Part shown: positions 1-47,064 of the stretch, in pieces
Layout: each line of letters begins with the position of its first letter
How positions within the stretch are numbered: position 1 is the stretch's first letter
NCBI GenBank assembly: GCA_028716665.1
Contig: JAQUPP010000001.1
Span: 555,073 to 619,072 of the forward strand
Length of the DNA stretch: 64,000 nucleotides
Direction of reading: 5' to 3'
DNA from: Patescibacteria group bacterium
Lineage (GTDB): Bacteria > Patescibacteriota > Patescibacteriia > UBA2591 > JAQUPP01
Notes under the pieces: model-generated
Told to the model about the DNA's origin: nothing
Database searches by the model: none
What the model saw: the letters and a program-made list of their open reading frames with translations, nothing else
Made by a program: the position numbers and the translations under genes

Positions 1-3000
1 GCCGGACAAGTTGGTTTATCAAAACCGGAAGAAACAATTACGGAAAATTTTTCCAGCACAACCAAGCGCGATGCCGCTCAAACTACGGCTGATTGGAATA
101 GCGGTACCAACGAACTTACTTTAAAGAAAACAATTACGCCAAGGATAGTTGGTACTTATGATACTCCGGCTACTGCTTATGATGTGGCGATTTCCGGCAA
201 TTACGCGTATGTGGTGGATTATAATCAAGGCTTAGAAATTTTTGATATTTCCACCCCTAGTACTCCGATTTTAAAGAGTAAATTAACCAGCGTAATGGAT
301 GCTTATGGTATTACTATATCAGGCAATTATGCATATATAGCCGGTAATGATTGGGGTTTTTGGATCGTTGATATTTCAAATCCTTTAAGTCCAACCTTAG
401 TTAAACGATATTATCCATGGGGCAGTAATACTTTAAAAGTGGATGTTTTAGGTAATTATGCTTATATAGCTCATGGTGGTGAAGGTTTAAGAATTGTTAA
501 TATCACAGATAGAAGCAATCCTTCAGAAACAGGTTTCTATGACACAACAGGTTCTTGTTATGATGTTAAAGTGCGTCAAGTCGGCGGAAATATTTATGCC
601 TACGTGGCTGACGGAGCACCCGGGTTATTGATTTTTGACGTAACCAATCCGGCCAGTCCGGTTCTTCTTGATACTCTTGATACTGAAAATGCCCGTGATG
701 TTTATGTTTCAGGTGATTACGCTTATGTCAGTGATGGAAATTATTTTAGAATTCTTGATGTTTCTACACCGTCTGATATTAAAGAAAAAAGTATTATAGA
801 TACTTTGGATGGCACTGAAGGAATTGATGTCAGCGGCAATCGCGCTTATCTTGCCAGCCATTCTTATGGAGTGCAGATTATTGATATTACCGATAAATCA
901 AATCCAAGTAAAATATCAATGGTTGATACCCCTCAATATCTTACTGATGCTAATAATTCCGCTTATCAAGTTGCAGTTTCCGGCAATTACGCGTATGTGG
1001 CAAATGGGAATAATATTGGACTCGTGGTTATTGATGTGAGTGAACCGTTTTCGCCGAATTTTTCCGAAAGTTTAAAAACTTTATCCGACAGCCAAGGCGT
1101 TTATGTCTCCGGCGATTACGCGTATATGGCTGAAGGTTATCAAGGACTTCATATTTATGATATAACCGGTGATACGCCAAGTTATGTCGGCAGTTATGAT
1201 ACACCCGGTTATGCTCGCGATGTTTATGTCAGCGGCGATTACGCTTACGTGACAGACAGTGATTGGGGTTTGCAAATTATTAATATTTCTATTCCTTCTG
1301 CGCCAAGTTTTGTCAGTTGGTATAATACTCCGGGTACTGCTTACCAAGTCGTGGTTGATGGTGATTACGCGTATGTAATTGATGCTACTACTTTGCAAAT
1401 TATAAATATCAGCAATAAAGCTTTATTAACCTTAACCGGTTCTTATAACTGTCCCGATAATGCTTATGGTTTGGATAAAGTTGGAAATTATGTTTATGTA
1501 ACCGGTTATGGTCAAAATCCAAGTTTTTCCGCGGTAAACGTAACCAATCCGGCCAGCCCTACATTAGCCGGTTCGTATAATGGCAGCGAATATGGCAATC
1601 AAGCTTATGATGTTAAAGTAAAAACAGTTGGCGCTTCAACTTACGCCTTTTTAGCTTCTTATAATTATGGTTTTCAAGTTTTAAATATTACTAATTTAGG
1701 TTCTATCTCTCGCGCTACTTATTTATATAGTACAGAAACGAGTTATGGTATAAGACTATTCCTGTCCGGCAATTATGCTTATCTTGCAAATGAAAGAGGA
1801 GGATTGGAAGTAATTGATATTTCTAATCCGGCCGCAATAAATCGCCAGCAAAAAATAGACGTACCTGATTATGTAATGGATGTGATGATTGACGGAGATA
1901 ATGCATATATGGCTGCGCGTTCTTCCGGACTTCAAAAAGTTAATATTACTCGGCCGGCTTCATTGTCTTCCACGCCAACCAGTGATTATGGTCGTGAAGT
2001 TTTTGTCAGCGGCAACTATGCTTACATGGCGGAAGAAACCAATAGCAGTTTAAGTATTTTTGACATAACTGATAAAACCGCGCCGGTATTTTTATCTAAT
2101 AAAGATTTAGCAGGCACTTATTGCAATGATGTTAAGGTTGTCGGCAGTTACGCTTACGTTTCCTGTTATGACGCCGGTCTTTATATTGTTGATGTTTCCG
2201 ATCCGGCCAATCCTGTTTATAAAGGCGTTTACAATACACCGAGTTATGCTTATGAAGTAATAGTTGACGGCAGTTATGCTTATGTGGCTGATTACACCAC
2301 TTTGCAAATTATTAATATTTCTGATCCGACAAATCCAACGCTTACAGGTTCATATAATTGTTCCGATTATGCTTATTATTTGGACAAAGTCGGCAATTAT
2401 GTTTATATAACCAGCTATAATCAAAATCCAAATTTAACAATAGTTAACGTAACTAATCCGGCCAGTCCGACTCTGGCTGGTTCTTTATATCAAAATGATC
2501 GTCAGTTAAATGGTATTAAGGTTAATGGCAGTTATGCTTACGTGGCCTATAGTGCTGCTTCCGGCGGAGTGGCAGTTTATAATATTTCCAATCCGGCTTC
2601 TATTTCTAAAACTGGTCAATGGGGTTTGAATGATTCAACAACCAATAGCAGTTTTATTACTTATAGCAATAATAAAGTTTATTTGTCAGCCGGCACCGGG
2701 GGTTTGCATGTGGTTGATGTAACTACGGCGGCCACTCCTGCTTATGTCGGGACTTTTGATACCACCAATACCGTGCGCGGCAGTTATATTTCCGGCAATT
2801 ATCTTTATTTTTCAGATTACATAGGCGGATTGAAAATTTTGGATATTTCACAAACCATGGGAGCGCCAACTTTGGAAGGTTCTCTCGACACGCCCGGCAA
2901 TTCTTATCGTTTGGATAAATTGGGCGATTATGCTTATGTGGCGGATTACAGCGGTGATTTAAGAATTATCAATGTTTCCAATCCGGCTTCGCCTTCGGCA

Positions 3001-6000
3001 ACCGGCAATCTTTCTTTAACAGGCAACAGTTATGATGTTAAGGCAAAAGTTCAGGGCAGCAAAACTTACGCTTATGTTGGAACAGATCAACTCGGACTTC
3101 AGATTGTAGACGCGACTACGCCGGCCAGTCCTACATTGGCGAACTCGGTTAATATTGGAAGCAATATTTATGGAGTTGAGCTTAACAATAATTATGCTTA
3201 TTTGGCCAGTGATACCGGAGGTTTAAATATCGTTGCTATTGGTGGGACAAATGGTTCGGATTCTGCGCAAGAATCTTCTGATAATGAAACTTTTCCATAT
3301 AAAAAATCAATTGCTTTGACCGGAGCCGGCGACGCCAGTACGAATTATCAAATTATGGTTAAGGTCGGTTATAGCAGCGCCGCAACAGGAGTAAATTTAA
3401 CGTGTTCCGGTAATTGTCAAGCCGATTTTGACGATATCAGATTTTATGATAATGACGGTGTGACAGAACTTGATTATTTTAAAGAAACATACACTTTGGG
3501 TGATAAAGCCACTTTTTGGGTGGAAGTAAAAGATAGTTTGTCCAGCGGACAAAACCCGACCATATATATGTATTATGGCGACAATGATGCCAGCACCACT
3601 TCCAGCGGCGCCAATACTTTCCCGTTATTTTTTGATGATTTTACCGGCACAACAATTGATACCGGAAAATGGAGCGAAACAGATACATCCAGTAAAATCA
3701 GTCAAAGTGATAAAATTGTTGTTACCGGCGGCGCGGGTTGGGGAAATACCAGTTTATACAGTGTGAGTGATTTTGCCAGAGCTGATAATTTGGAATTATT
3801 ATTTGATTATAAACCGACTGGCGGAACTTCTGTAATGTTTGGTTGGAAAGATAGCACTTCCGGCAAGAGCTATACGGATTTAATTTATTCTTTCTATGAT
3901 ACTAGTGATACAAATCGTATTTACGAAGACAATGGTGACAGAGGACAATTTTCCGGTGGTTGGATCGCCAATAACACTTATAAAGTCAGAATGCCGTTGA
4001 AAACCGGTGGCGGAGCAAAATATATGCGCAGTACTGATGGCGGACGAACATGGGTATTAAATTATGATTCTTCGTATTCCACTGAAGCGACTGAAAAAAT
4101 CGGTTTTATTAATTCTGATGCTGCTTATGAGATTGATAATGCTTTTATTCGTAAGGTTTCTTCTGCTGATCCGAAAATAAATAATTATATTTATAATGCC
4201 GGCGGTTCTGATTTAACAGAGCAAGCTTCGGGTAACGGAGATTTTCCATACAAAAAAACCATTGGTTTATTGGGCCAGGGTGATGCGGGAACGAATTATC
4301 AAATTGAAATTAAAGTTGGTTATGCTCCTACAACCAATGGAGTTAATTTAAGTTGTTCCAGCCATTGCCAAACTGATTTTGACGATATCAGATTTTATGA
4401 TAATGATGGTACGACCGAATTGGATTATTGGCGAGAAACTTATACTGCTTCTGATCAGGCCACTTTTTGGGTAGAAGTTAAAGATAGTTTGTCAGACGGT
4501 GAAAATCCGAATATTTATATGTATTATGGAAATGAAACGGCGGATACCGCTTCTAATTCCGCTAATACTTTTACTGAAACAAATCCTGACACATTTGATG
4601 TGGGAAGCTGGCACATGGAAGAAGGTTCTGGATCTACTACTGACGATGCTTCTGCTAATAGTAATACAGCCACTATTAATGGCGCGACATGGACTTCATC
4701 TGGGAAATTCGGGAACGCGCTAGACTTTGATGGAGCTGATAATGTCAGTGTTCCTTCAAGTTCTGAATTAAGCCCAACAGACGCGATTAGCGTGGAATTT
4801 TGGATTTATCCAAAGGGTCGTTATTCGGATTGGGGAAATATTATTTATAAATCAGGCAGTTATGGTCTTAATTGGGAGGGTTGGAATGCAAGAATGAGGT
4901 GGACAATAGGCGCAAGTTGCGGCGGCAGTTGGGGTGGAGGAGGTCTCCCCACTTTAGCCTATAATACCTGGACTCATGTCGTGGCCACTTATGATAAAAA
5001 TTTACCCAGCAATCAGATGAATATGTATTTTAATGGTGTTGTTGGCGAAACTTTAACCTGTACTAATGCTATTCCTGTTAATTCCAATGCTCTTGTAATG
5101 AAGATTGATAACAATATTCCTGTGGATCAATCAGAAAGATTAGATGAAGTAAAAGTTTATAATCGTGCTTTATCTGCCGATGAAGTTTCATCTTTATATA
5201 ATTATAACTTAATTAGAACTCGTAAGTCTTCTTCTGTTGATCCGGAAGTGGCTAATACTATTTCACCGTTTACACCCGAAATAATCAGTTCTTTTGATAC
5301 GCCGGGTAATGCTTGGGATGTGAAAGTGAAAACTATTGGCGCTGTAACTTATGCTTTTGTGGCAGATTATTCCGGCGGCGGATTAAGAATTATCAATGTA
5401 ACCGATCCTGCCAATCCGGTTGAAGTTTCATCAATCGGTTCCGGAAATACTTTTAGATCAGTTGATGTTGTTGGTAATTATGCTTATTTGGCTCTTGAAG
5501 GCAGCGATCTTTATATTTATGATATTTCCAATATAGCTGTTCCTTTTTTTGTCGGTAATTACAGTATAGTAAATTATGAAGCTTACGATATACAAGTTAT
5601 CAGTAATTATGCTTATTTGGCTAACAGACAAGGAGGTTTGTATATAATAGATGTCAGTAATCCGTATCGGCCGGGCATGGTCAGTCAATATAACACTTAT
5701 CCGGATTATACTTGGGGGTTGATTGTTGAAGGGGACTACGCTTATTTGGCTACTTATACTACTGGTTTAAAAATAATTGACTTAGGTGATTTATCACCGC
5801 CGGTTCAAGTTTCAACTACAATGGCAGTTGGAATTAGTAATGCTCAAGATGTGGCGGTTTCCGGTAATTATGCATATGTGGCGGAATACAATTGGGGATT
5901 AATAGTTATTGACGTCTCAAGCACAAGTACACCAAGCATTGTCGGGTCAGCTCAATCTTTTGGTAATCCATATGCTATTACAGTGGACGGCGATTACGCG

Positions 6001-9000
6001 TATGTGGCGAGCCAGAATAGAGGTTTGGAAATATTTGACATTTCCGATCCGACAGCGCCGATTTTAACCAAATCTTATATTTGGACGGGCAGCGGTTCGG
6101 TTTATGATATTGAAGTAATTGGCAATTATGCGTATCTTGCCAATTATACTTATGGTATTAAAATAATTGATATTACTGATAAATATAATCCACTTTTAGT
6201 CGGCAGTGCAGGCGTAAGTGGAAGCGCAGCCGGTATTGATATACAAGGTGATTATGCTTATGTCACAGACTATGGTGCTTATATGCATATTTTTAATATT
6301 TCCAATAAAACTTCGCCGCAATGGATAAGCAGTTATAATATTACCGGAGGTCAAGGCTTGGTGTGGAGAATAGCTGTTTCCGGCGATTATGCTTACGTGG
6401 CTGACAAAGGATATAATTTATATATTTTTAATATTGCCGACCCATATAATATCGCGCTTGTCGGCACTCTTGATTCTGACATATCAGGACAGAGTGACAG
6501 GGGTGCTTTAAATCTTTTTGTCAGCGGTACGCGTGTTTATATTGCGGATTACACTCGCGGTCTGCAAGTAATTGATATCAGCGATCCGACTGCTCCTTAT
6601 ATTTTATCTTGCATTGACAGAGTTAAAGATAATCAATTGTGGGCTGGAGCTTATTTTGGCGGAGTTATATCTGTATCTATCTCCGGACATTATGCTTATT
6701 TGATTGACACTTTAAGGGGTCTTTGGATTGTTGACCTTGATCAATTATCAGAAACACCGGCAGTGAATACTGCCAGTGGCGGTTATGTGACAGATATAGA
6801 AGTGCAAGGAGATTATACTTATGTTTTGGCGAATAGCAGTGCCGGGAGCGGTTCAACGGCATTTTCTGTTTTATCAATTTTTGATACCAGTACCAATCCG
6901 GCCACTTTAAAGAGTCGAATAAAAATTTATGATGCTTTGGGGATAACGGTCAGTGGTAATTATGTTTATGTGGCAAATCTTGGCAAGGGATTATTAATTA
7001 TTGATGTTTCAAATAAATCTGCTCCGCAGGGAGTCGGCGTTTATGATTCAACCGGTTCTACTTATGACGTGGCGGTCTCAGGAAATTATGCATACTTGGC
7101 GGATTATTCCGGCGGATTTAAAGTAATTGATATTTCTACTAAAACCAGCCCGGTTTATAAGACAGTTATTAATACAGGTGTCGCAACCCAGAGAGTTCAA
7201 GTAAAAGGCAATTATGCTTATGTGACTGATGCCACTACCGGTTTTCATATTATTAATATTACCACCCCCACTTCGCCTTCAGAAACAGGTTCAACTTTAC
7301 CGGTCAATGCTCATTATGACTTCTTTGTTGAAGGAAGTTATGTTTATGTCGGCGACAATACATCGGGTCTAACAATATACAACATTTCCAATCCGGCCGC
7401 GCCTTATTTGGTTGGTACTTATGATACCATGGGTAATGTTTATGACGTAAAAGTTTCCGGCGGATACGCTTATATCAGCGATTATGGCGGCGGACTTTTA
7501 ATTTTGGATGTTTCAATTCCTTCATCGCCGGCTTATGTTGGTAACTACATCAGCAAAAGCTCAACTTACAGACTTTTTGTCAAAAGGAATAAAATATATT
7601 TGGCTACGCAATATCACGGCGTGGAAGTTATAAATTTAAAAACACAAAATTCAAACGTTGTTTCAACCGGACTTGATACTTTGGCTGCTCCGATTTTAAA
7701 AGGTTCTTTAACCGCCACTGACACTGAGCCGACCGGCACTTCTATTACTTATTATTTAAGTGTTGATAACGGCACTACTTGGGAGGCAATTACGCCTGAT
7801 GGCAGTGAATATACTTTTACCGCTTTTGGTTCTGATTTAAAATGGAAGGCGGTTATGACCACTGATGATTCAACAATAACTCCAACTATTTCTCAAGTTG
7901 TAATTTGGGCTTCAACCGGAATGAGCAATACCGGTTATCTTATTTCTTCGGTTTTTGAGCAAAAATCTCCAAATTTTGCTTGGGAAACCATAGAATGGAC
8001 TGACAACGAAATACAAACTACAAGAGTAAAAGTTCGTACTGACGAGACTGCCGATATGGCCACAGCCACGACTTGGACAAATTGTCCATACGCGGTAGAC
8101 GAAGGCGATCTTGGCGATTTATCTTCTGTTTCCTCAACTCAACCTTATATCCAATATCGTCTTGAATTCGCCACTTCGGATATTGATGAAACTCCGATTC
8201 TTAGCGATATTGATATAACCTCAGCGGTTTATGCCACCGCGACTTATGATTATAGTCAAACTAATCCGGTTGGTTGGTATCACATTGATTGGGTTAATTC
8301 CGGCGGCACAGACACGGCTGTAAAAGTTAGAACTAAAGAAGCGGATACTCAAGAAGGATTAGACGATGATACTTGGAGTGATTGGGTAACTACCAGCGGC
8401 CAAGATATCAGAGAAATGGCCAGTCCGACAAAATGGATCAGGCTTGAAGTTCAAATAGAAACAAGAAAAAATAATGTTTCACCGATTCTGGAAAGTTTAA
8501 GTCTTTTTTACGCGGTCAATGTTACGCCAACAGTCTCAGAAATTTCGGCTCAGGAAAACGAAAATGGAGTGGTTCAAATTTCTTATACAGTTTTAGACGA
8601 GGACAGTGATAGTATTAGCACAACTTTTCAATATTGGGATGGTGATTCTTGGGAAGATTGCGATACCACTACGGGTGAAGGCAGTCATGATGTCACTCCG
8701 GGTTTGCAGACAGAATTAACCGGCACGTGGAATGTAAAAACAGATTATAATAATCAATATCTTGCCAATTCTCGCATTAAAATTATTATTGATGACAGTT
8801 CGCCTTATTTAAATCTTGGCGAAGATCAATCTACTACTTTTGTAATTGATACGAAAAAACCGACTACTCCGACTTTAAGTATTAACTCAGGCGCAGCGAT
8901 TACCAACTCTTTGTTTGTAACTTTAACTCCGGCTTGTGTTGATGACAGTGATTTAAAAGTTCAGTTTTCCAATGATGATTTAACTTATGGCACGGTCACC

Positions 9001-11928
9001 AATGTTGAAGGCGTGATAACTAATTCCGGCGAATGGGAGGCCAAGAGTATTGGTAAAAGTTGGATAATGAAAGCAATTGACGGCAGCACAAGAACAGCTT
9101 GGTTTAAATGTAAAGATATTTATGGCAATCAATCCGATACCGGCGGTTCGGCGACCATTAATTACGATACAGGTTTGCCCGGAGTAGTTGATAATGTCAG
9201 TATTGCCGATGCGTCAAATGAATATGTAGAACGTTATGCGTTGACTATTATGTGGGACGCTCTTAGTACTGAAGACAATCCTGATTTTTCAGCTTACAGT
9301 ATTGAGAGATCAACTGATGGTGTAACTTATTCACCGGCAGCCAGTATAAGTGATATCACCACTTCTGTTTATACCAATATCGGTCTTTCCAAAGATATTA
9401 CTTATTTTTATCGCATTAAATCAAAAGACACGGCTGATAATTATTCTTTACCTTCAAGTGTGGTTTCTTATCAACCGGCTTCGGAAGACGATATTCCCCC
9501 GGCTTTAACCGGCGGCTCTCCGGTTGCTACTTCGCACGAAGATTATGCCTTATTCACTTGGGCGACTGATGAACCTTCTGATTCTCACGTGGAATATGGA
9601 ATTATTTCCGGGACTTACACTTCCATGCAAGGTAATGACACTCAAACTGTTTCTCATTCAGTTCAGGTTTATGGATTAAATCCTTTAACCACATATTATT
9701 ATCGTATCAGATCCAAAGATGCCTCTGGTAATCCTTTGGTTTCTCCGGAATACTCTTTTATTTATTGGCCCCCTGAACTTGACGACATTCCATCTATTTC
9801 CGGAGAACAAGCTCAATCTCCGTCGGCTGTTGGCACTGAGGTAACTATTACTTGGATTACTGACAAATATACCACCAGTCAAGTTTACTATGGTTCGACT
9901 CAAACCGGAACTTGTGGAGAACTTAGCAGCTATACCACGGAAGATACAACTTTAAATAAATCGCATACCGTTTTATTAAGAAGTCTTCCTTATGACACTA
10001 CTTATTACTATTGCACACGTTCCAAAGATACTTACGATCATATCACTTGGGGAAGCATGAGAAATTTCACTACTGAAGCAGAACCAAGTCCGGATGACAC
10101 AACCGCTCCGGTTATTTCTGAAATCAATTCGTATCCCACAGAAACGCTTTGCACGATAATTTGGACCACTGATGATTCCGCCAATTCTCAAATTGAATAT
10201 GGTTCAACCACTGCTTACGGAACTTCAAGCACTCTTGATTCAACTTTAACCGCCAAACACGTGGTTCGCTTGACTGATTTAACCACTGAACAAGTTTATC
10301 ATTATCGAATCAAATCAAAAAATGCGGCCGATCTTGAAACCGTTAGCCAGGACTATACTTTTACTCCTCAATATGTTTCTCAGGAAGTAAGAGTGATTAA
10401 TGCAGGAGGAGGAGGCAGCGCAGCTGTCCCGACCAAAGACACAACTTCTCCGGTTATCAGCAACATATCTGCGTCTTCAATCAGCGACAACAGCGCCAAA
10501 ATTTCTTGGACTACTGATGAAAATGCCACCAGTCTAATTAGCTATGGTTTAACCACTGATTACAGTAATTATGTCTTCAGTGATATGACTAGCTTAATCA
10601 CTTCGCATCAAATCACTCTTTCCAATTTGACCAAGTCCACCGTCTATCATTATCAAGTCCTATCTCAAGACGCTTCGGGTAATCTTGCTCAAAGCGCTGA
10701 CGCCGTCTTCACCACTTTAAGTGTATCGGGTGGAACCACCCCGACTCAGGAAACCACGCCTGAAACTCCGGTTACTCCGGAAACACCGGTTGAACCAACA
10801 ACACCAATTGAACCGACTCCAACTCCTGTTACCGCCATAGATCAATCTTTTGTCACGGCCATGGAAGCAGCCAGACAAATCTCCACTCAAGTTACCGGAC
10901 CGGTTCTTGAAACAACTTTCCAGAATTTCTTGAACACTTTGAAAGACATCACGCCGGGTTTGTCGCTTGAAGCAGCTCCTGAGATTGAGATCTCAGCCAC
11001 TGACGCGATTATCAAATGGAAAACAAACAAACGTTCCAACTCTCAAATCGCTTTTGCCAAAGTTGCCGATTACGACGACACCAAATCAGAACCATATTCG
11101 CAAATTGTTGGCCAATCAAATGAGAAAGAATTAAATCACAATGTTAAAATTATCAACCTGACTCCTTCCACCGATTACTATTTCCAAATTCGCTCCAAGA
11201 GCATTATCGGTTCAGAAGCAAAATCAAAAAGATATACTTTCACCACGGCTTCGCAATTGCCCGAAGTGACTAATTTCTCCATCAAAAATATTTCTGAGAG
11301 AGCAGCCACTTTTGTTTGGCAGACAAATATCCCGACTGATTCGCAAGTGAAATTCATCCCTTATCGCAACAATGAACTGGCGGTGGGCGAAGCCCAGACT
11401 GTCAGCAAATCTGATTTCAATGTGGCTCACGAAATCGCAGTCAAGAATCTTGAACCGGGCACGACTTTCAATGTTTCGCTTGAAGGAAAAGATTTGCAGG
11501 GCAACAACTATTCTTTCCTGATTCCAAACTTCACCACCACCAAAGACAAAAATGCGCCAATCATTTCGCAAATCAGAACCTCAATCGCTTTGTCATCAAG
11601 AGGCGATGAAGTCCAGACCATTATTACTTGGAATACCAATGAACCTTCAACCTCGCAGGTTGAATACCAGGTTGGATTTGGTGAGGATGCTCCGACTGTC
11701 CAAATGACCGAAGATATCAGTTTGAGACAAGAACATTTAATGGTTATTACTTCGTTTAAACCCGGATCCATTTACAGATTCAGAGTCATTTCTGAGGATT
11801 CTTCGGGCAACAAAACTCAATCAACAACCAATACTTTACTGACTCCTCAAAAGAGATTGACCGTAACCGAATTGATTTTCCAAAACTTCCAACAGACCTT
11901 CGGATGGATGAAAGGATTGGGTAAATAA
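1..11928 (+). CDS. Giant surface protein, 5'-truncated by the window edge (frame open from nt 1; track start 184 is an internal Met). About 25 LVIVD-type beta-propeller repeats, two DUF2341-like modules, a LamG/ConA-like lectin domain, a second LVIVD block, a long Fn3-like array, a Pro/Thr linker, and a conserved C-terminal three-Fn3 module plus tail.
   Basis: Frame 1 has no stop from nt 1. Repeated 'GNYAYVAD..GL.I.D.S.P..P' units match LVIVD repeats. 'DIRFYDNDG..ELDY..ETY....ATFWVEV..L....NP.IYMYYGN' appears twice (DUF2341-like). 'LDFDGADNVSVP...ISVEFWIYPKG...WTHVVATYD' is LamG-like. Many 'YYYRI(R/K)SKD..GN' Fn3/PAP-N-like units. The C-terminal 600 aa are near-identical to ORF2 and ORF3. Confidence 0.8.
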   Translation, partial: AGQVGLSKPEETITENFSSTTKRDAAQTTADWNSGTNELTLKKTITPRIVGTYDTPATAYDVAISGNYAYVVDYNQGLEIFDISTPSTPILKSKLTSVMDAYGITISGNYAYIAGNDWGFWIVDISNPLSPTLVKRYYPWGSNTLKVDVLGNYAYIAHGGEGLRIVNITDRSNPSETGFYDTTGSCYDVKVRQVGGNIYAYVADGAPGLLIFDVTNPASPVLLDTLDTENARDVYVSGDYAYVSDGNYFRILDVSTPSDIKEKSIIDTLDGTEGIDVSGNRAYLASHSYGVQIIDITDKSNPSKISMVDTPQYLTDANNSAYQVAVSGNYAYVANGNNIGLVVIDVSEPFSPNFSESLKTLSDSQGVYVSGDYAYMAEGYQGLHIYDITGDTPSYVGSYDTPGYARDVYVSGDYAYVTDSDWGLQIINISIPSAPSFVSWYNTPGTAYQVVVDGDYAYVIDATTLQIINISNKALLTLTGSYNCPDNAYGLDKVGNYVYVTGYGQNPSFSAVNVTNPASPTLAGSYNGSEYGNQAYDVKVKTVGASTYAFLASYNYGFQVLNITNLGSISRATYLYSTETSYGIRLFLSGNYAYLANERGGLEVIDISNPAAINRQQKIDVPDYVMDVMIDGDNAYMAARSSGLQKVNITRPASLSSTPTSDYGREVFVSGNYAYMAEETNSSLSIFDITDKTAPVFLSNKDLAGTYCNDVKVVGSYAYVSCYDAGLYIVDVSDPANPVYKGVYNTPSYAYEVIVDGSYAYVADYTTLQIINISDPTNPTLTGSYNCSDYAYYLDKVGNYVYITSYNQNPNLTIVNVTNPASPTLAGSLYQNDRQLNGIKVNGSYAYVAYSAASGGVAVYNISNPASISKTGQWGLNDSTTNSSFITYSNNKVYLSAGTGGLHVVDVTTAATPAYVGTFDTTNTVRGSYISGNYLYFSDYIGGLKILDISQTMGAPTLEGSLDTPGNSYRLDKLGDYAYVADYSGDLRIINVSNPASPSATGNLSLTGNSYDVKAKVQGSKTYAYVGTDQLGLQIVDATTPASPTLANSVNIGSNIYGVELNNNYAYLASDTGGLNIVAIGGTNGSDSAQESSDNETFPYKKSIALTGAGDASTNYQIMVKVGYSSAATGVNLTCSGNCQADFDDIRFYDNDGVTELDYFKETYTLGDKATFWVEVKDSLSSGQNPTIYMYYGDNDASTTSSGANTFPLFFDDFTGTTIDTGKWSETDTSSKISQSDKIVVTGGAGWGNTSLYSVSDFARADNLELLFDYKPTGGTSVMFGWKDSTSGKSYTDLIYSFYDTSDTNRIYEDNGDRGQFSGGWIANNTYKVRMPLKTGGGAKYMRSTDGGRTWVLNYDSSYSTEATEKIGFINSDAAYEIDNAFIRKVSSADPKINNYIYNAGGSDLTEQASGNGDFPYKKTIGLLGQGDAGTNYQIEIKVGYAPTTNGVNLSCSSHCQTDFDDIRFYDNDGTTELDYWRETYTASDQATFWVEVKDSLSDGENPNIYMYYGNETADTASNSANTFTETNPDTFDVGSWHMEEGSGSTTDDASANSNTATINGATWTSSGKFGNALDFDGADNVSVPSSSELSPTDAISVEFWIYPKGRYSDWGNIIYKSGSYGLNWEGWNARMRWTIGASCGGSWGGGGLPTLAYNTWTHVVATYDKNLPSNQMNMYFNGVVGETLTCTNAIPVNSNALVMKIDNNIPVDQSERLDEVKVYNRALSADEVSSLYNYNLIRTRKSSSVDPEVANTISPFTPEIISSFDTPGNAWDVKVKTIGAVTYAFVADYSGGGLRIINVTDPANPVEVSSIGSGNTFRSVDVVGNYAYLALEGSDLYIYDISNIAVPFFVGNYSIVNYEAYDIQVISNYAYLANRQGGLYIIDVSNPYRPGMVSQYNTYPDYTWGLIVEGDYAYLATYTTGLKIIDLGDLSPPVQVSTTMAVGISNAQDVAVSGNYAYVAEYNWGLIVIDVSSTSTPSIVGSAQSFGNPYAITVDGDYAYVASQNRGLEIFDISDPTAPILTKSYIWTGSGSVYDIEVIGNYAYLANYTYGIKIIDITDKYNPLLVGSAGVSGSAAGIDIQGDYAYVTDYGAYMHIFNISNKTSPQWISSYNITGGQGLVWRIAVSGDYAYVADKGYNLYIFNIADPYNIALVGTLDSDISGQSDRGALNLFVSGTRVYIADYTRGLQVIDISDPTAPYILSCIDRVKDNQLWAGAYFGGVISVSISGHYAYLIDTLRGLWIVDLDQLSETPAVNTASGGYVTDIEVQGDYTYVLANSSAGSGSTAFSVLSIFDTSTNPATLKSRIKIYDALGITVSGNYVYVANLGKGLLIIDVSNKSAPQGVGVYDSTGSTYDVAVSGNYAYLADYSGGFKVIDISTKTSPVYKTVINTGVATQRVQVKGNYAYVTDATTGFHIINITTPTSPSETGSTLPVNAHYDFFVEGSYVYVGDNTSGLTIYNISNPAAPYLVGTYDTMGNVYDVKVSGGYAYISDYGGGLLILDVSIPSSPAYVGNYISKSSTYRLFVKRNKIYLATQYHGVEVINLKTQNSNVVSTGLDTLAAPILKGSLTATDTEPTGTSITYYLSVDNGTTWEAITPDGSEYTFTAFGSDLKWKAVMTTDDSTITPTISQVVIWASTGMSNTGYLISSVFEQKSPNFAWETIEWTDNEIQTTRVKVRTDETADMATATTWTNCPYAVDEGDLGDLSSVSSTQPYIQYRLEFATSDIDETPILSDIDITSAVYATATYDYSQTNPVGWYHIDWVNSGGTDTAVKVRTKEADTQEGLDDDTWSDWVTTSGQDIREMASPTKWIRLEVQIETRKNNVSPILESLSLFYAVNVTPTVSEISAQENENGVVQISYTVLDEDSDSISTTFQYWDGDSWEDCDTTTGEGSHDVTPGLQTELTGTWNVKTDYNNQYLANSRIKIIIDDSSPYLNLGEDQSTTFVIDTKKPTTPTLSINSGAAITNSLFVTLTPACVDDSDLKVQFSNDDLTYGTVTNVEGVITNSGEWEAKSIGKSWIMKAIDGSTRTAWFKCKDIYGNQSDTGGSATINYDTGLPGVVDNVSIADASNEYVERYALTIMWDALSTEDNPDFSAYSIERSTDGVTYSPAASISDITTSVYTNIGLSKDITYFYRIKSKDTADNYSLPSSVVSYQPASEDDIPPALTGGSPVATSHEDYALFTWATDEPSDSHVEYGIISGTYTSMQGNDTQTVSHSVQVYGLNPLTTYYYRIRSKDASGNPLVSPEYSFIYWPPELDDIPSISGEQAQSPSAVGTEVTITWITDKYTTSQVYYGSTQTGTCGELSSYTTEDTTLNKSHTVLLRSLPYDTTYYYCTRSKDTYDHITWGSMRNFTTEAEPSPDDTTAPVISEINSYPTETLCTIIWTTDDSANSQIEYGSTTAYGTSSTLDSTLTAKHVVRLTDLTTEQVYHYRIKSKNAADLETVSQDYTFTPQYVSQEVRVINAGGGGSAAVPTKDTTSPVISNISASSISDNSAKISWTTDENATSLISYGLTTDYSNYVFSDMTSLITSHQITLSNLTKSTVYHYQVLSQDASGNLAQSADAVFTTLSVSGGTTPTQETTPETPVTPETPVEPTTPIEPTPTPVTAIDQSFVTAMEAARQISTQVTGPVLETTFQNFLNTLKDITPGLSLEAAPEIEISATDAIIKWKTNKRSNSQIAFAKVADYDDTKSEPYSQIVGQSNEKELNHNVKIINLTPSTDYYFQIRSKSIIGSEAKSKRYTFTTASQLPEVTNFSIKNISERAATFVWQTNIPTDSQVKFIPYRNNELAVGEAQTVSKSDFNVAHEIAVKNLEPGTTFNVSLEGKDLQGNNYSFLIPNFTTTKDKNAPIISQIRTSIALSSRGDEVQTIITWNTNEPSTSQVEYQVGFGEDAPTVQMTEDISLRQEHLMVITSFKPGSIYRFRVISEDSSGNKTQSTTNTLLTPQKRLTVTELIFQNFQQTFGWMKGLGK
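10075..11928 (+). repeat. Conserved 3' gene module, copy 1 of 3, inverted relative to copies at 53355..55200 and 61368..63210. Encodes Fn3-like domains plus the C-terminal tail.
   Basis: Protein stretches such as 'FTTASQLPEVTNFSIKNISERAATFVWQTNIPTDSQVK' are 100% identical between ORF1 and ORF2. Spot nucleotide comparison of 11236-11350 against the reverse complement of about 53940-54060 gives roughly 90% identity. Boundaries are approximate. Confidence 0.7.
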
Positions 11929-11948: not shown

Positions 11949-12356
11949 ATGTATTTATTAATTAATAATTTGGAAGAAAGCAGAAATTATTTGGCTTTAA
12001 TAATGGACAAGTCCGCGAAAAAATATTTTTTTTTAACTTTGAAAAACAAAAGAGGACAAGACAATAATATTTTGAAAGGATTGGACAATCTTTTATCAAA
12101 AGTAAATAAAAGATTAAAAGATATTAAGGGTATTATTGTTGTTAATGGTCCGGGCTCATTTGTCGGCATTAGGGTGGCCTTGTCAGTGGCGAATACTTTG
12201 GCTTGGTTGTTAAAAGTTCCCGTGGTCGGCCTTAAGAATGGAGAGAAATTTAATTTGATTAAAATCGGAATTAAAAAATTAAACAAGAAAACAAAAACAG
12301 TCAGGCCGTTTTATGGGAAACTGCCAAATATAAGCCAACCTAAAGAGTTTTGTTGA
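11949..12356 (+). CDS. tsaB: tRNA t6A biosynthesis protein TsaB (YeaZ)-like, short form of 135 aa
   Basis: 'IIVVNGPGSFVGIRVALSVANTLAWLLKVPVVGL' matches the TsaB/YeaZ N-terminal signature (GPGSFTGLR). It lacks the C-terminal half of canonical TsaB. Confidence 0.5.
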   Translation: MYLLINNLEESRNYLALIMDKSAKKYFFLTLKNKRGQDNNILKGLDNLLSKVNKRLKDIKGIIVVNGPGSFVGIRVALSVANTLAWLLKVPVVGLKNGEKFNLIKIGIKKLNKKTKTVRPFYGKLPNISQPKEFC

Positions 12357-12409
12357 AAATTTAGAGGTTGGAAGCCGAATAAATTTTTACTACAAAACCT
12401 TTACCACCT

Positions 12410-12516
12410 TCTTTATCCCAACGATAAACTTTCGATAATCGTTAGGAATAAGGCGAAGCCGCTTCGCTTACGGCGTATCGTAAAAGGGTAGACCCCCGAT
12501 GGAGTAAAGGAGGGGG
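12410..12516. repeat. GC-rich, hairpin-rich intergenic element bounded by imperfect 14 bp inverted repeats (TACCACCTTCTTTA / TAAAGGAGGGGGTA), sitting in the same conserved sequence frame as the element at 14472..14630
   Basis: Hairpins GCGAAGC-C-GCTTCGC and ACCCCC..GGGGGT. Flanked by 'acaaaaccttt' on the left and 'gcaaaattatagttaaaaattt' on the right, the same flanks seen at 14461 and 14631. Confidence 0.5.
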
Positions 12517-12584
12517 TACGCAAAATTATAGTTAAAAATTTCGCCCCGCCAGCTGGCGGATTAAATAATTTAAATAAATTTACT

Positions 12585-13160
12585 ATGATCAATAAAATAA
12601 TGTTGCAGAAATTAAGCAAGGAATACAAAAATCACGTTTCAATGTTTTATTTGGTGAATCAGCAATCAAATGTCGCTTTGCACAAATCAAAACAGGCGAT
12701 TTTTTCTTTGCAGCGTGATCAAATCAGTGAAGCTGAAAAAAGTCTTAAAGAAGTTGAACAGATTTTTATTAAGCTTCAAGGTTCATTAACCAAGTCGCCG
12801 CAACTTTTATATGCAGGTGCTTATAAAGCGGCATTGGAAGAATATGCGGAAGCCAAACTATTTTGGCAAGCCATAAAATTCGGACAATTGAAAGAAATTT
12901 CCGAAATCAAGCTTGGTTTTGAAAGCTATTTGGGCGGTATTTGCGATTTAACCGGCGAATTGGTTAGAAAAATTGTTCTCTTGGCCACTGAAGATAAAGT
13001 TGAAAAAGCGCGAGAACTTAAAGAATTAATCACTCAAGTCGTTGGCGAATTGATTAAATTGGATTTAACCGGTTATTTAAGGACAAAATATGATGATGCC
13101 AAGAGAAATTTGAAAAAAGCGGAAGAAATATTGTACGATTTGAAAATAAGAAGCAAATAA
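12585..13160 (+). CDS. Helical protein, possibly translin family
   Basis: 'ESYLGGICDLTGELVRKIV' resembles the translin/TRAX 'G..DLTGEL.R' motif. Predicted all-helical, about 190 aa. Weak call. Confidence 0.35.
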   Translation: MINKIMLQKLSKEYKNHVSMFYLVNQQSNVALHKSKQAIFSLQRDQISEAEKSLKEVEQIFIKLQGSLTKSPQLLYAGAYKAALEEYAEAKLFWQAIKFGQLKEISEIKLGFESYLGGICDLTGELVRKIVLLATEDKVEKARELKELITQVVGELIKLDLTGYLRTKYDDAKRNLKKAEEILYDLKIRSK

Positions 13161-13164
13161 TTTT

Positions 13165-13395
13165 ATGTCATCACTCGGAGACATGGGGTCATTCTTAAAA
13201 ACAATAATAGGTACTTTTATTTTTGGCATAAAAAATGCTCCTTTGGTTTATATTCCCATTTTAATTTTTGTCGTTTTAATAATCATTTTGATTATTTTTA
13301 CCGGCAGAAAAAAATTATCAAAAACTAATTTTCCGGCAGAGCCAAAAACTTTAATGAAGAAAAAATTTCCGCCTCGTCCACCTTTTATCAAATAA
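13165..13395 (+). CDS. Small hypothetical membrane protein (one TM segment)
   Basis: Hydrophobic stretch 'LVYIPILIFVVLIIILIIF'. No recognisable domain. Confidence 0.3.
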   Translation: MSSLGDMGSFLKTIIGTFIFGIKNAPLVYIPILIFVVLIIILIIFTGRKKLSKTNFPAEPKTLMKKKFPPRPPFIK

Positions 13396-13432
13396 AGGCG
13401 TCGAGAATTTCGCTATAAGTAATAAATGTTAT

Positions 13433-14107
13433 ATGAAAGAAAATAAAAAGAGAATAAGGGCGCAAATTATTCCCGCTGTTTTGGAGAAAGATTTTAAAGA
13501 AGTTGAAGAAAAAATAAATATTTGCCGAGGAATATTCAAATTGATTCAAATTGATATTGGCGACAATATTTTTGTTAAAAATAAAACTTGGCAAAACGCT
13601 TCAGATCTTAAAAATTTTAATGTTCAAATGAATTTTGAGGTTCATTTGATGGTTGAAAATCCAAGGTTGGTTGTTAAAAAATGGTTTTTCAAAAAAATAA
13701 AAAGGATTATCTTTCATCTTGAAGCTGATAAAAATCCAAAACAAATTTTAAAATTGATCAAGCAAAAAGGTTTCCAAGCCGGATTGGCCATTAATCCAAG
13801 AACATCTTTAGAAAAATTAAAAAATATTCCGCCTGAATTGTTGGATGAAGTGCTTTTTATGGGCGTGGAACCGGGGTTTAGCGGGCAAAAATTCGAAAAA
13901 TCAATTTTGAAAAAAATTAAATCTTTCCACAAAATGTTTCCGAAAGTAAAAATAGGCGTTGACGGCGGCGTAAATCCAAAAACAGCGTCATTGCTTGAAA
14001 AATCAGGCGCAAATTATTTATTTGTCGGTTCTTATTTCTGGAAAAATTTAAAGAAATATCCTGGTCAAGAAAAGAAAAAAATAAAAGAGTTAGTGAGACT
14101 CTTTTAA
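13433..14107 (+). CDS. rpe: Ribulose-phosphate 3-epimerase
   Basis: 'IIPAVLEKDF', 'HLMVENP', 'HLEA', 'MGVEPGFSGQKF' and 'VDGGV' match Rpe catalytic and binding motifs. Confidence 0.75.
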   Translation: MKENKKRIRAQIIPAVLEKDFKEVEEKINICRGIFKLIQIDIGDNIFVKNKTWQNASDLKNFNVQMNFEVHLMVENPRLVVKKWFFKKIKRIIFHLEADKNPKQILKLIKQKGFQAGLAINPRTSLEKLKNIPPELLDEVLFMGVEPGFSGQKFEKSILKKIKSFHKMFPKVKIGVDGGVNPKTASLLEKSGANYLFVGSYFWKNLKKYPGQEKKKIKELVRLF

Positions 14108-14114
14108 AAATTAT

Positions 14115-14453
14115 ATGTATTTTAAAGCTCCAAAAAATGATTTTAAAACAATCTGGACCCGACACGCTGTTTCAAAAATGCGCCAATACGGGCTTTCGGA
14201 AAATTGTTTGAAAAAATTGCTTCGCAATTCAATTCGTCAGGAAGAGGGGATTGCGCCGGGAACTACGGCCATAATGCAAGTTTCGGGCAGCAAAAAACAT
14301 CCGACTGAAATTTGGCTGATGTATCAAAAATCAGGCGCGAAAATAAAAATTATTACCGTTTGGCGTTATCCGGGCATAAGCCCGAAAAAAGAAATACCCA
14401 TACCCGAAGACATAAAGGGCTTTGTCCAAAATTACAAGTCGGAGACGCAGTAA
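14115..14453 (+). CDS. Hypothetical protein, DUF4258-like (possible orphan toxin-like domain)
   Basis: 'WTRHAVSKMRQYGLSENCLKKLL...IKIITVWRYPG' resembles the DUF4258 pattern. No partner gene seen. Confidence 0.35.
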   Translation: MYFKAPKNDFKTIWTRHAVSKMRQYGLSENCLKKLLRNSIRQEEGIAPGTTAIMQVSGSKKHPTEIWLMYQKSGAKIKIITVWRYPGISPKKEIPIPEDIKGFVQNYKSETQ

Positions 14454-14471
14454 TTTTGGCAACAAAACCTT

Positions 14472-14630
14472 TACCGAGCACTCAATTTATTCTTTTTTTA
14501 TGTATTACGTTTATATAATCAAAAATCAGATAAAGAAAAAAATATATATTGGCTATACTGATGATTTAAAAAGAAGACTTAAAGAACGTCTCAAATCTAG
14601 TTTAGAGGAATAAATTGAGTGCTCGGTACT
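14472..14630. mobile_element. Miniature TIR-flanked element carrying a truncated GIY-YIG nuclease ORF. Perfect 20 bp terminal inverted repeats: TACCGAGCACTCAATTTATT at 14472-14491 and AATAAATTGAGTGCTCGGTA at 14611-14630.
   Basis: The inverted repeats are read directly from the sequence and are perfect over 20 of 20 bp. The internal ORF encodes 'MYYVYIIKNQIKKKIYIGYTDDLKRRLKE...'. Confidence 0.7.
14500..14613 (+). pseudogene. Truncated GIY-YIG nuclease remnant (37 aa, N-terminal GIY..YIG half only), paralogous to the intact gene at 52443..52691
   Basis: 'YYVYIIKNQ...IYIGYTDDLKRRLKE' aligns with '[28 protein letters not shown]' of the 82-aa GIY-YIG protein. It ends before the catalytic Glu region. 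Confidence 0.6.
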
Positions 14631-14650
14631 CAAAATTATAGTTAAAAATT

Positions 14651-15814
14651 TTGCGTTTTCAACTTAAATTTTCAAATAATTTTGGTATGAAAAGAAAATA
14701 CAGATTCATTAAAGCATTGGCATGTTTTGCCGGAACCATTATCGGAGTCGGATTTTTTTGTTTGCCTTATGTGGCGCGACAAGCGGGATTTTTTGTCGTT
14801 GTCGCGTATTTTATTTTAATGTCCGGCATAGTTATTGTCATTCATTCTCTCTTGGGTGAAGTGACTTGCGACACCCATAGAGTTGCCAGAATTCCCGGTT
14901 ACGCCGAAGAATATCTCGGCAAAAGAGCAAAAAAAATAAGCTTTACGGTTTCTTTACTCAGTTTAACCGGAGCGCTCTTGGCTTATCTTATTATGGGTGG
15001 AGAGTTTTTGTATTTATTATTATCGCCATTGATCGGGGGCGCTGTTATTTATTATGTCTTGGCTTATTTTATTTTGGGATCAATTATAATTTATCGCGAT
15101 CGGTGCGCTATGGTGCCGATTCAATTGATTTTAGGAGTTGTTTTTGTATTGATACTTTTATTTTTCTTTTTCAGAGGCCTACCCTATGTTCATTTGAAGA
15201 ATTTAGTCACCTTTGATTATCGTCTTTTAACAATGCCTTACGGAGTAGTATTGTTTTCTCTTTGGGGCATTACTTTGGTGCCGGAAGCCAAGGAAATCGT
15301 GGATCGAAACCGCAAAAAACTTTTTAAAGTAATCGGTTTTGGCGTTATTATTGCCGCCATTTGCTATCTGCTTTTTATTTTTACTATTTTGGGCGTCAGC
15401 GGTGCAGAAACAACCAATGACGCTATTTTGGGATTTAGTAAAATTATTGATCCCAGATTGATTTATTTGGGTTTCTTTTTGGGATTAATCACCACTTTTA
15501 CTTCTTTTATCAGCATCGGGACGACTTTGAAGAAAATTTTTTGGTATGATTTGAAATTATCCAAAAAGAAATCTTGGGCTTTTGCTTGTTTTATTCCTCT
15601 TGCCTTGTATTTATTGGGTTTTAAAAATTGCATTGATGTTATCGGTCTGACCGGCGGGATTTTTTTGGGGCTGGAAGGAATTATTGTCATTCTAATTTAT
15701 CAGCATTTTGTTAAAAAAAGATTTCAATATCGCATACCGTTTTTCACTTATCTTTTGATAATTTTGCTTTTATTGGGCATGGTTTCGGAAATCGCTTATT
15801 TATTTATCCGTTAA
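14651..15814 (+). CDS. Amino acid permease-like integral membrane transporter (AAAP/aromatic amino acid permease-like)
   Basis: Ten or more predicted TM segments. N-terminal 'AGTIIGVGFFCLPY' resembles the amino-acid transporter signature. Confidence 0.45.
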   Translation: MRFQLKFSNNFGMKRKYRFIKALACFAGTIIGVGFFCLPYVARQAGFFVVVAYFILMSGIVIVIHSLLGEVTCDTHRVARIPGYAEEYLGKRAKKISFTVSLLSLTGALLAYLIMGGEFLYLLLSPLIGGAVIYYVLAYFILGSIIIYRDRCAMVPIQLILGVVFVLILLFFFFRGLPYVHLKNLVTFDYRLLTMPYGVVLFSLWGITLVPEAKEIVDRNRKKLFKVIGFGVIIAAICYLLFIFTILGVSGAETTNDAILGFSKIIDPRLIYLGFFLGLITTFTSFISIGTTLKKIFWYDLKLSKKKSWAFACFIPLALYLLGFKNCIDVIGLTGGIFLGLEGIIVILIYQHFVKKRFQYRIPFFTYLLIILLLLGMVSEIAYLFIR

Positions 15815-17318: not shown

Positions 17319-17508
17319 CGTTGATTATTTTCGGATAACCGTTTAAAAAATGCCGATTTTGTCTGAACGAAGTGAAGGTACAAAATCGAGCACCCCGTAC
17401 AAATTCTCAAAAAAAAGCAATGTGTTAAAAAATAATTAGCCGTAGGCGATTCAGCGAAAGAAAAATAATTTTAAAATAAATTTTGTCGGGATTTGGTGCG
17501 GGGTTAAT

Positions 17509-47026: not shown

Positions 47027-47064
47027 ACCCGCCCAAGTTTTTCTTTGAAAAATCTGGGCGGGTG
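47027..47064 (-). terminator. Probable terminator for the gene at 47119..48435
   Basis: 'acccgcccaag tttttctttgaaaaat ctgggcgggt'. Confidence 0.5.

Follow-up and report, generated by a model that had tools for sequence, protein, structure and literature searches.

A decayed GIY-YIG nuclease gene inside an inverted repeat of a Patescibacteria genome and its relation to a family of hairpin-borne cassettes

The inverted repeat and its ORF

The DNA considered here is a stretch of 64,000 nucleotides (nt) from contig JAQUPP010000001.1 of a Patescibacteria group bacterium (assembly GCA_028716665.1), referred to below as the window, with positions counted from its first letter. It contains, between a DUF4258-like gene on one side and a gene for an aromatic amino-acid permease on the other, a short open reading frame (ORF) with the beginning of a GIY-YIG nuclease domain, bracketed by the arms of a perfect inverted repeat. 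We found that this feature is a full-length cassette that has lost 117 nt by an in-frame deletion between direct repeats, and we favour, with some reservation, the explanation that it is the dead miniature of a selfish element akin to the Ssn system, in which a gene for a GIY-YIG nuclease of 74-76 amino acids (aa) is carried in the loop of its own hairpin.

On the plus strand the locus begins with the left scaffold flank GCAACAAAACCTT (14459-14471), which together with TACC makes up the conserved left border CAAAACCTTTACC. It is followed by the left arm TACCGAGCACTCAATTTATTC (14472-14492), which ends 7 nt before the ATG of the remnant ORF (14500-14616, 37 codons plus the stop codon at 14614-14616, translation MYYVYIIKNQIKKKIYIGYTDDLKRRLKERLKSSLEE). 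Within the ORF lies the deletion junction with the surviving copy of a direct repeat, CTTAAAGAAC (14578-14587), which encodes (R)LKE. The right arm GAATAAATTGAGTGCTCGGTA (14608-14628) runs across the final two codons together with the stop codon, and is followed by the right scaffold flank CTCAAAATTATAGTTAAAAATTTTGC (14629-14654). A sequence-only reading of this DNA had described perfect 20-bp repeats flanking the ORF. The repeats are real and even one base longer, i.e. 21 nt, but the right arm had been placed 2 nt off, at 14611-14630 (the complement of the 20-mer lies at 14609-14628), and the ORF, although bracketed, is overlapped by it at the 3' end. The 20-mer of the arm occurs only twice in the window when 3 mismatches are tolerated, with 0 occurrences expected from 100 shuffles. 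A second, weaker inverted repeat can be read from the sequence further downstream, where CAAAATTAT (14631-14639) pairs with ATAATTTTG (14676-14684) on the same strand and stops 2 nt before the ATG of the permease gene (14687); its counterpart in another copy of the scaffold (E3, described below) is CAAATTTTT / AAAAATTTG, i.e. the pair covaries.

The assignment of the ORF (14500-14613, 37 aa) to the GIY-YIG superfamily, which the sequence-only reading had proposed, is significant in a profile search (Pfam PF01541, E = 4.5e-9, 36.9 bits with the cutoff at 22.6), with a match that spans only positions 1-29 of the 78 positions of the profile. An exact look-up of the 37-aa sequence among called genes returned no record, and a six-frame profile scan of the window revealed no GIY-YIG sequence beyond the remnant and an 82-aa gene discussed below. 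The tRNA and Rfam scans of the window, supplemented by an Rfam scan of 12300-14750, gave no match, which rules out an intron, a riboswitch or another known RNA family at the locus. Across the locus, GCA_028713475.1, GCA_028690995.1 and a Logan assembly (L001-L003, found via the identical upstream gene) show 100% identity to the window; these loci are therefore useless as empty-site controls. The window contains a single copy of the cassette, and the exact 20-mer was found on only 7 contigs of the metagenome collection. The unrelated contig L091 (PDWI01148308.1), which shares the exact 20-mer, carries no GIY-YIG gene in the 1.6 kb covered; at 400-900 it has hairpins of the GGTGCTCGGG / CCGAGCAC type arranged in an array, after which come tandem repeats of ~29 nt.

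It is practically negligible as an explanation that the repeat arose by chance or is peculiar to this locus and has nothing to do with the ORF, e.g. as a hairpin for termination or attenuation or as a local inverted duplication. At 14615-14633, inside the right arm and its flank, a small terminator-like hairpin is indeed predicted, and plain hairpins exist in the same scaffold elsewhere, but no match is expected by chance, a loop of 115 nt makes no terminator, and the related cassettes sit inside operons such as parA-parB. This explanation is refuted, as the arrangement recurs, with compensatory changes, at over 20 homologous genes of different species. A sigma-70 promoter in the right arm and flank (TTGAGT-16-TATAGT, 9/12) was considered and rejected, as the variable arm contains its -35-like part, which the other copies of the scaffold lack.

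Origin of the remnant by internal deletion

Database search with the extended ORF identified proteins of 74-76 aa in other Patescibacteria, the closest being P0002 (MYYVYIIKNQIKKKIYIGYTDDLKRRIKEHKNKDPELIYYEAYKLEKDARNRERKLKQRGQAIRHLKERLKSSLEE). The window ORF corresponds to residues 1-27 of P0002 joined to the C-terminal LKERLKSSLEE (the last 10-11 residues of the 76-aa protein), with 97% identity over the retained parts. In the DNA alignment with the P0002 locus (L004) the difference is a single in-frame gap of 117 nt (39 codons) directly 5' of CTTAAAGAAC, and L004 possesses at the corresponding positions the direct repeats ATAAAAGAAC and CTCAAAGAAC, spaced by 117 nt and 7-10 nt long, which encode RRIKE-H and RHLKE-R. 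Thus, the gene is not truncated, nor was only its 5' part captured, as had been supposed: both gene termini and both arms are kept and an internal block with the catalytic core is gone. The idea of a miniature, repeat-bounded derivative of a GIY-YIG nuclease element was largely right. The residues lost include His30, Tyr39, Arg52 and Glu53, all invariant in the family alignment A2, so the remnant is predicted to be catalytically dead; the window copy would no longer make a nuclease and could at best serve as a passive hairpin. In L063, these direct repeats likewise mark a deletion of 117 nt; the locus belongs to a different arm lineage, and the deletion therefore arose there independently.

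The sequence-only reading had pointed to the intact 82-aa gene at 52443-52691 as a clear relative of the ORF. The kinship holds at the level of the superfamily (44% identity over 32 aa, E = 1e-6), but we rejected this gene as the parent copy, since it has no flanking repeat and overlaps the upstream gene; the true parents are the 74-76-aa proteins encoded elsewhere. The 82-aa gene (minus strand) is intact, belongs to another subfamily with a GAHYTKLRRP insert as in UPF0213/Ssn-like proteins, and has a 4-nt overlap with the upstream gene. Its appearance is that of a gene resident in an operon, not of a cassette.

The parent family and its covarying arms

We fetched 80 loci encoding relatives from species-representative genomes and determined for each the best inverted repeat between the 50 nt upstream and the 50 nt downstream of the gene. 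In the close 74-76-aa type a flanking repeat of 13-21 nt was found at all 21 loci (21/21, with a maximum of 8-14 in shuffled sequences), hence the configuration with terminal inverted repeats, formerly regarded as unusual, is a hallmark of this gene subfamily. A wider survey that took in all fetched loci agrees with this. The arms abut or overlap the ATG and the stop codon. Full-length genes between such repeats, proposed earlier as something to search for, exist in L004, L085, L090 and other loci, and the left arm of the window cassette also precedes full-length genes in L004, L005, L013, L085 and L090. In some called proteins the arms have been read through, the left one in the N-terminal extensions of P0001 and P0010, the right one as ...EEQIECSVLKF in the C-terminal extension of P0004. 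The hairpin with its flanks can be written out as CAAAACCTTTACC-GAGCACTCAA-(loop)-TTGAGTGCTC-GGTACTCAAAATT.

The sequence of the arms varies between lineages (e.g. ACCGAGCACTCAATTT, ACCGAGCACATAAATT, ACCCAGCACATAACTT, ACCCCGCACATAAAT and ACCCCGCCCTTTCT), yet the two arms remain complementary. Over 23 copies 95.7% of the cells are paired, compared with 77% in shuffles and 32-43% when the partner arm is slid, and 13 of the 19 arm pairs changed on both sides, a value reached by none of the 500 shuffles. Between L004 and L090 the proteins are 64% identical and synonymous sites are saturated (pS 0.81), while the arms are identical at 20/20 and 19/20 positions; thus, the arms are more conserved than the protein and under selection. 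The intact genes are under purifying selection as well, with dN/dS of 0.07-0.16 where computable.

PF01541 covers the whole 76-aa protein type, i.e. it is a single domain with no further domain attached, and the modelled protein exhibits the GIY-YIG beta-beta-alpha-beta-alpha core (pLDDT 78). The family profile retrieves 467 representatives (50% clustering) at E <= 1e-10. There is no specific family in NCBIfam, where sub-threshold matches to group I intron endonucleases cover the GIY-YIG motif. Among solved structures, sequence and fold searches rank UPF0213, I-TevI and Slx1 first, too weakly for a placement of the family, with UPF0213 BH0048 as the best match in the sequence-profile search of PDB (E = 5.7e-4).

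The intergenic scaffold and presence or absence of the cassette

A related strain without the cassette at the orthologous site, another thing that had been proposed to look for, is represented by L084. Its permease is 97% identical to that of the window and the gene order TsaD, translin, 76-aa gene, rpe, DUF4258-like gene, permease is shared. At the orthologous site L084 has CAAAACCTTTACC, CGCCCAAGTTTTTTATTAAAAAATCTGGGCG and GGTACGCAAAATTATAGTTAAAAATTTTGC in succession, with flanks identical to those of the window and a plain 31-nt hairpin in the place of the 149-nt cassette. The boundaries fall exactly after ACC and before GGT (...TTTACC and GGTAC...), with no duplication.

Elsewhere in the window these flanks enclose other contents. 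In E1 (12394-12523, plus strand; left flank at 12393), a scaffold without a gene between the TsaD-like and translin genes, the order is CAAAACCTTTACC, a non-coding interior of 109 nt with the arms ACCTTCTTTATCC / GGAGTAAAGGAGGG, and GGTACGCAAAATTATAGTTAAAAATTT. In E3 (47072-47021, minus strand), between two minus-strand genes, the scaffold holds only a 31-nt hairpin (CGCCCAGATTTTTCAAAGAAAAACTTGGGCG) and its left flank is slightly diverged. The right flanks of E1 (at 12515) and E3 (at 47029, minus strand) are near-identical to that of the cassette, as are those of L004 and of the cassette-free L084, and the left flank adjoins cassettes in L004, L009, L011, L015, L022, L030, L085 and L088; the flanks thus accompany cassettes in at least eight other genomes. 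Altogether the scaffold flanks are present 3-4 times in the window, where they enclose three different stems. The conserved unit reaches 13 nt to the left and about 26 nt to the right past the arms, and the cassette therefore fills one slot of a mosaic intergenic repeat. The plain hairpin of the scaffold reads CGCCCAAG...CTGGGCG; the one that L084 has at the cassette site is that of E3 in the opposite orientation, hence inner hairpin modules occur in both orientations within the scaffold. The scaffold was not seen upstream of the permease in the more distant syntenic relatives L092 and L093, which indicates that it is young or lineage-restricted at this site.

These observations bear on the reading as a classical terminal-inverted-repeat (TIR) transposon or miniature inverted-repeat transposable element (MITE), according to which the arms would be bound by a transposase and the window copy would be a non-autonomous derivative moved in trans by cut-and-paste. 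The perfect inverted repeats, the origin by internal deletion from a longer, autonomous-looking copy, and several independent miniatures (L010b, L021b, L087, L063) agree with it, as does a 5-nt direct repeat that flanks the arms in a tRNA-adjacent subfamily (see below). The miniature keeps both inverted ends and loses the coding core, and miniaturisation is recurrent and independent, as in MITEs. However, target-site duplication was not found at the window cassette (the flanks CTT/TACC... and ...GGTA/CTC contain no direct repeat) or at sites of its type, and the cassette takes the place of a resident hairpin with ACC and GGT as the exact boundaries. The repeats lie sub-terminally within a larger conserved scaffold that also exists cassette-free, and there is no second copy in the window. 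All that the autonomous form encodes is a hydrolytic nuclease domain of 76 aa, not known as a transposase and devoid of DNA-binding and strand-transfer modules. We consider the transposon reading improbable.

Homing endonucleases of the classical kind, the other possibility raised by the sequence-only reading, share with the cassette the presence or absence at a precise site, as in the comparison of the window with L084. A C-terminal DNA-binding domain of the I-TevI type (~250 aa in total) is missing from the family, whose members have 74-76 aa and the catalytic domain only, and in place of an intron or a conserved target gene we found at least 13 contexts, with no Rfam intron in the window. 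With neither target-site duplication nor DNA-binding and intron context, neither the TIR/MITE nor the homing-endonuclease class in its classical form fits the element.

Several further differences in the vicinity of scaffold copies are recorded here. The L084 orthologue of E1 (2563-2709) has a different interior of 126 nt, which on the minus strand weakly encodes YYIYVVGQFSERIYISFFTNLEE, a possible decayed GIY-YIG start (E = 0.38). At 17350-17400 (plus strand) the window may contain a fourth, rearranged copy of the scaffold, GATTTTGTCTGAACGAAGTGAAGGTACAAAATC followed by GAGCACCCCGTACAAATTCTC, which resembles the hairpin-A module and the left border of L004. Between the 76-aa gene and rpe, L084 has a palindromic insertion of 214 nt (3665-3880, outer arms GCGAATTTCG / CGAAATTCGC), to which a 37-nt spacer (13395-13433) corresponds in the window, i.e. 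a second hairpin element exhibits presence or absence between the strains.

Distribution, orientation and decay of the cassettes

The cassettes occupy at least 13 different operon spacers. The genes downstream of them encode ParB (with ParA upstream), MraZ, LigA, rplE, rplK, rpsL, NusA, SerRS, trigger factor, NDK, a short-chain dehydrogenase/reductase (SDR) and MacB/FtsX, in addition to the aromatic amino-acid permease of the window. On each side, ~40-60 nt separate the cassette from its neighbour. Co-orientation with the cassette was found for the upstream neighbour at 18 of 19 loci (binomial p ~4e-5, our own calculation) and for the downstream one at 17 of 18; as the loci lie in long co-directional gene runs, orientation with respect to transcription is inseparable from orientation with respect to replication.

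About 40% of the copies (~12/30) are decayed, being either pseudogenes or miniatures. In-frame stops are present in L012, L015, L019 and L022, broken N-termini in L013/L089 and L030, and miniatures in L010 (2503-2606), L021 (1975-2048) and L087, the last of which is a 155-nt deletion of an L086-like copy.

Patescibacteria are ultra-small, naturally DNA-scavenging bacteria, and the nuclease and its hairpins could constitute a domesticated host system that controls the fate of incoming or replicating single-stranded DNA (ssDNA), with the window copy as its pseudogene. The strong purifying selection on intact genes and the long persistence at one locus (L007 and L018, upstream of mraZ) agree with such a role, and there is a precedent, since a domesticated role has been proposed for SsnA and its NTS sites in Neisseria (PMC11893778). 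On the other hand, the decayed fraction is high, loci with tandem or multiple copies exist (L027, L010), rRNA genes have been invaded, contexts differ by species, and copies are present or absent between near-identical strains, all of which is typical of selfish elements. We therefore regard domestication as unlikely.

Relatives in tRNA leaders and rRNA genes

A subfamily of 83 aa is located ~20 nt 5' of genes for tRNA-Ala/Ile and beside tRNA-Val in L027 (loci L025-L028, L032 and L033); L027 (3001-3554) carries two tandem copies. Its arms are GCCCCTCAC.../...GTGAGGGGC, and the right arm ends with GGGGC, i.e. nucleotides 1-5 of the tRNA. A 5-nt direct repeat (CCGTA, CAGTA or GGTTA) flanks the arms. 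This layout is the signature of an insertion that restores the 5' end of the tRNA.

Other homologs reside inside rRNA genes, namely 23S (L023, 3001-3234, and L034, 3001-3267, where Rfam LSU matches span the gene) and the V1 region of 16S (L038, 3001-3255). Our reading of the flanking sequence places the insertions of L023 and L034 in the helix-25 region. The arms of the rRNA-inserted cassettes are 13-16 nt long (e.g. CCCAGCACTTTCT) and ~25 nt separate the left arm from the start codon; in L023 this interval includes GAGGTG, which resembles a Shine-Dalgarno sequence. Tsurumaki et al. 2024 (PMC11270868) recorded GIY-YIG ORFs in non-intron insertions of rRNA genes of Patescibacteria (CPR, the candidate phyla radiation); such ORFs were first noted by Brown et al. 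2015, as cited in PMC11270868. These insertions agree with our cassettes in the phylum, in the small GIY-YIG ORFs and in not being group I/II introns; L023, L034 and L038 are such cases and are homologous to the parent family of the window remnant. What is not in PMC11270868 is the flanking covarying repeat, the intergenic and tRNA-adjacent copies and the miniatures, and the window copy differs in being intergenic.

The excision of intervening sequences from 23S rRNA by RNase III is known from Salmonella, Leptospira and Coxiella (summarised in PMC11270868). Similar to the cassettes, they consist of an inverted-repeat stem with an optional small ORF in the loop, are located at helix tips and are sporadically distributed. 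By contrast, the window copy and most of its relatives are located in mRNA spacers (the homologs L023 and L034 in 23S and L038 in 16S are inserted at a helix tip), and the ORF is of the GIY-YIG type rather than S23p.

The repeat could thus be primarily an RNA element, a helix for RNase III-type processing or for insulation like that of rRNA intervening sequences, which cuts the cassette out of the transcript or masks the start codon and thereby renders insertion into operons, tRNA leaders and rRNA harmless; recognition of DNA by the nuclease would be secondary or absent. This alternative overlaps with the explanation we favour, and we hold it to be possible, though rather less than probable. 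As RNA, the region 14455-14650 adopts a fold in which the arms make up a single long stem (-45.9 kcal/mol, z = -5.3). Start and stop codons adjoin the arms or lie within them, the sense orientation is strongly preferred in co-directional gene runs, and a U.G closing pair (TACC...GGTG) is conserved on the sense strand in 10/23 copies. The relatives in the 5' part of 23S rRNA (in what we read as the position of the helix-25 intervening sequence) and in 16S V1 point in the same direction, as do the GIY-YIG ORFs in non-intron insertions of CPR rRNA genes (PMC11270868). Yet G.U pairs in the stem are not enriched over other mismatches (4 vs about 12 cells), and covariation does not discriminate between an RNA stem, a DNA hairpin and concerted evolution of terminal repeats. 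An RNA role also leaves the spread to new sites and the purifying selection on the protein unexplained.

Comparison with the Ssn system and a possible mechanism

Judging from sequence comparisons, the Ssn/NTS system appears to be the closest known relative of the window's family. Ssn proteins (cd10448; Chenal et al. 2025, PMC11893778) are single-domain GIY-YIG proteins of ~94 aa which cut ssDNA beside a cognate hairpin (NTS/SRM); their genes are typically flanked by hairpins on both sides, in a layout called "identical to" an insertion sequence (IS). The cassettes share with SsnA of Neisseria meningitidis the single GIY-YIG domain of less than 100 aa without an extra DNA-binding domain, the IS-like bracketing of the gene by an inverted, hairpin-forming cognate sequence, and the co-variation of protein and repeat between lineages. 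Flavobacterial homologs (93 aa), which are 39-46% identical to P0002 (blastp, E = 1e-11 to 2e-16), are flanked by TTTCATTTCCGCGAAGGCGGAAATC, with 21/25 positions matching the Neisseria NTS consensus and one compensatory pair. Within the 74-76-aa subfamily the genes of L016 and L017 lie between two complete solo hairpins, of which the one upstream is inverted, and solo hairpins with cognate arms are found near the genes in L007, L016 and L017.

Unlike Ssn, the cassette protein has 74-76 aa instead of 93-94 aa (about 18 aa shorter), and lacks the ~17-aa insert after the His residue and the C-terminal W..K..LI..NP.W.DL tail. Furthermore, its gene lies in the loop of one split hairpin, whereas the Ssn gene is placed between two complete hairpins, and it has copies in rRNA genes and tRNA leaders; many cassette copies are decayed. 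Matches to the published SRM search motif, HGTCWYN(0-2)YYVSBRHN(0-5)WNVSBRGN(0-2)RNCYNB, were found only in L037, L044, L046 and L057, away from cassettes. Canonical NTS/SRM-type motifs (TGTCATCCCCGCGCAGGCGGGGATCCAG) were located in L037 (6201), L057 (753 and 833) and L046 (122), hence classical Ssn-type repeats also exist in the phylum.

A further parallel is offered by repetitive extragenic palindromic (REP) sequences with their REP-associated tyrosine transposases (RAYT) and bacterial interspersed mosaic elements (BIME), which are also discussed in PMC11893778: there, too, a small nuclease gene lies between inverted short palindromic repeats, and the repeat also exists gene-free in mosaic intergenic modules. 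The cassettes differ in the nuclease, which is a hydrolytic GIY-YIG enzyme and not an HUH/Y1 transposase, in the location of the gene in the hairpin loop, and in the apparently low copy number of the exact repeat.

By homology with Ssn, the intact nuclease may recognise its own hairpin in ssDNA, i.e. the stem with the asymmetric flanks CAAAACCTTTACC / GGT(A/G)CTCAAA, and nick it. Repair or recombination between copies of the scaffold would then swap a plain hairpin for a gene-bearing one, a homing-like gene conversion that would leave no target-site duplication. In transcripts of the host the stem probably lets the cassette be tolerated or processed out, which would explain the copies in operons, tRNA leaders and rRNA helices.

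A number of points weigh against this dead-miniature explanation. Recognition of a hairpin in ssDNA is inferred by homology to Ssn, whose sites are short complete hairpins, while the loop is here 115-230 nt long and may not fold readily in ssDNA. The SRM motif is matched neither in the window (0 matches) nor at any cassette of the subfamily, and the fold search, although it ranks GIY-YIG structures first, is not significant (E >= 0.1). In the window the exact arm sequence occurs at this cassette only, so that cognate sites are not demonstrated as a dispersed population in this genome, and a scaffold without any hairpin, with ACC joined directly to GGT, was not found in 567 kb. The two alleles at the permease site are compatible both with gain in the window lineage and with replacement-loss in L084. 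Finally, L007 and L018 are both located upstream of mraZ and their synonymous divergence is saturated, so that some copies are ancient and have been passed on vertically instead of moving recently.

As for the window copy, it is a fossil, and the interest lies in the pattern at the level of the family. As a tentative generalisation, which may well prove too broad, Patescibacteria could harbour a hitherto undescribed class of minimal mobile elements, "hairpin-loop cassettes" of ~300 bp with the gene for a 75-aa Ssn-like GIY-YIG nuclease in the loop of the hairpin that it targets, that combine nicking of hairpins in ssDNA, spread through plain scaffold hairpins, tRNA leaders and rRNA helix tips, excision or insulation at the RNA level, and recurrent self-miniaturisation. 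The stem in RNA would act as the excision or insulation signal that makes insertion into essential transcripts neutral, and the direct repeats encoding RRLKE would predispose the element to the recurrent loss of 117 nt.

If the dead-miniature explanation is correct, the newly described partnership of an Ssn nuclease and a hairpin reaches into the candidate phyla radiation, where it is more compact and clearly selfish, with the gene inside the hairpin, frequent decay and presence or absence between strains. The cassettes would also offer an explanation for the non-intron GIY-YIG insertions in rRNA genes of Patescibacteria. The family would represent a set of candidate site-specific ssDNA nucleases of ~75 aa, whose probable recognition sites can be read from the flanks. 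Many short "GIY-YIG" ORFs and N-terminally extended calls in metagenome-assembled genomes of Patescibacteria are copies or remnants of cassettes read through the arms.

Neighbouring genes and other features of the window

The DUF4258-like gene upstream of the cassette (14115-14453, plus strand) encodes 112 aa with a sub-threshold match to the toxin-like DUF4258 (E = 1.1e-3), and its G+C content is ~0.40 compared with ~0.30 nearby. Its last codons (AAGTCGGAGAC) resemble GTCTCCGAC..GTCGGAG, a small hairpin module located ahead of the scaffold in L004, L011 and L084. In the distant relatives L092 and L093 homologous genes of ~107-109 aa precede the permease.

Elsewhere in the window, at 44966-45030, there is a hairpin with a 19-bp stem (CCTCGCACCTTTCGGCGAT ... 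ATCGCCGAAAGGTGCGGGG) between two minus-strand genes, adjoined by a promoter-like site TTGACA-16-TATTAT on the minus strand. The window also contains two giant ORFs, of 3914 aa (184-11928, plus strand) and 2646 aa (53355-61295, minus strand), of the kind often seen in genomes of Patescibacteria.

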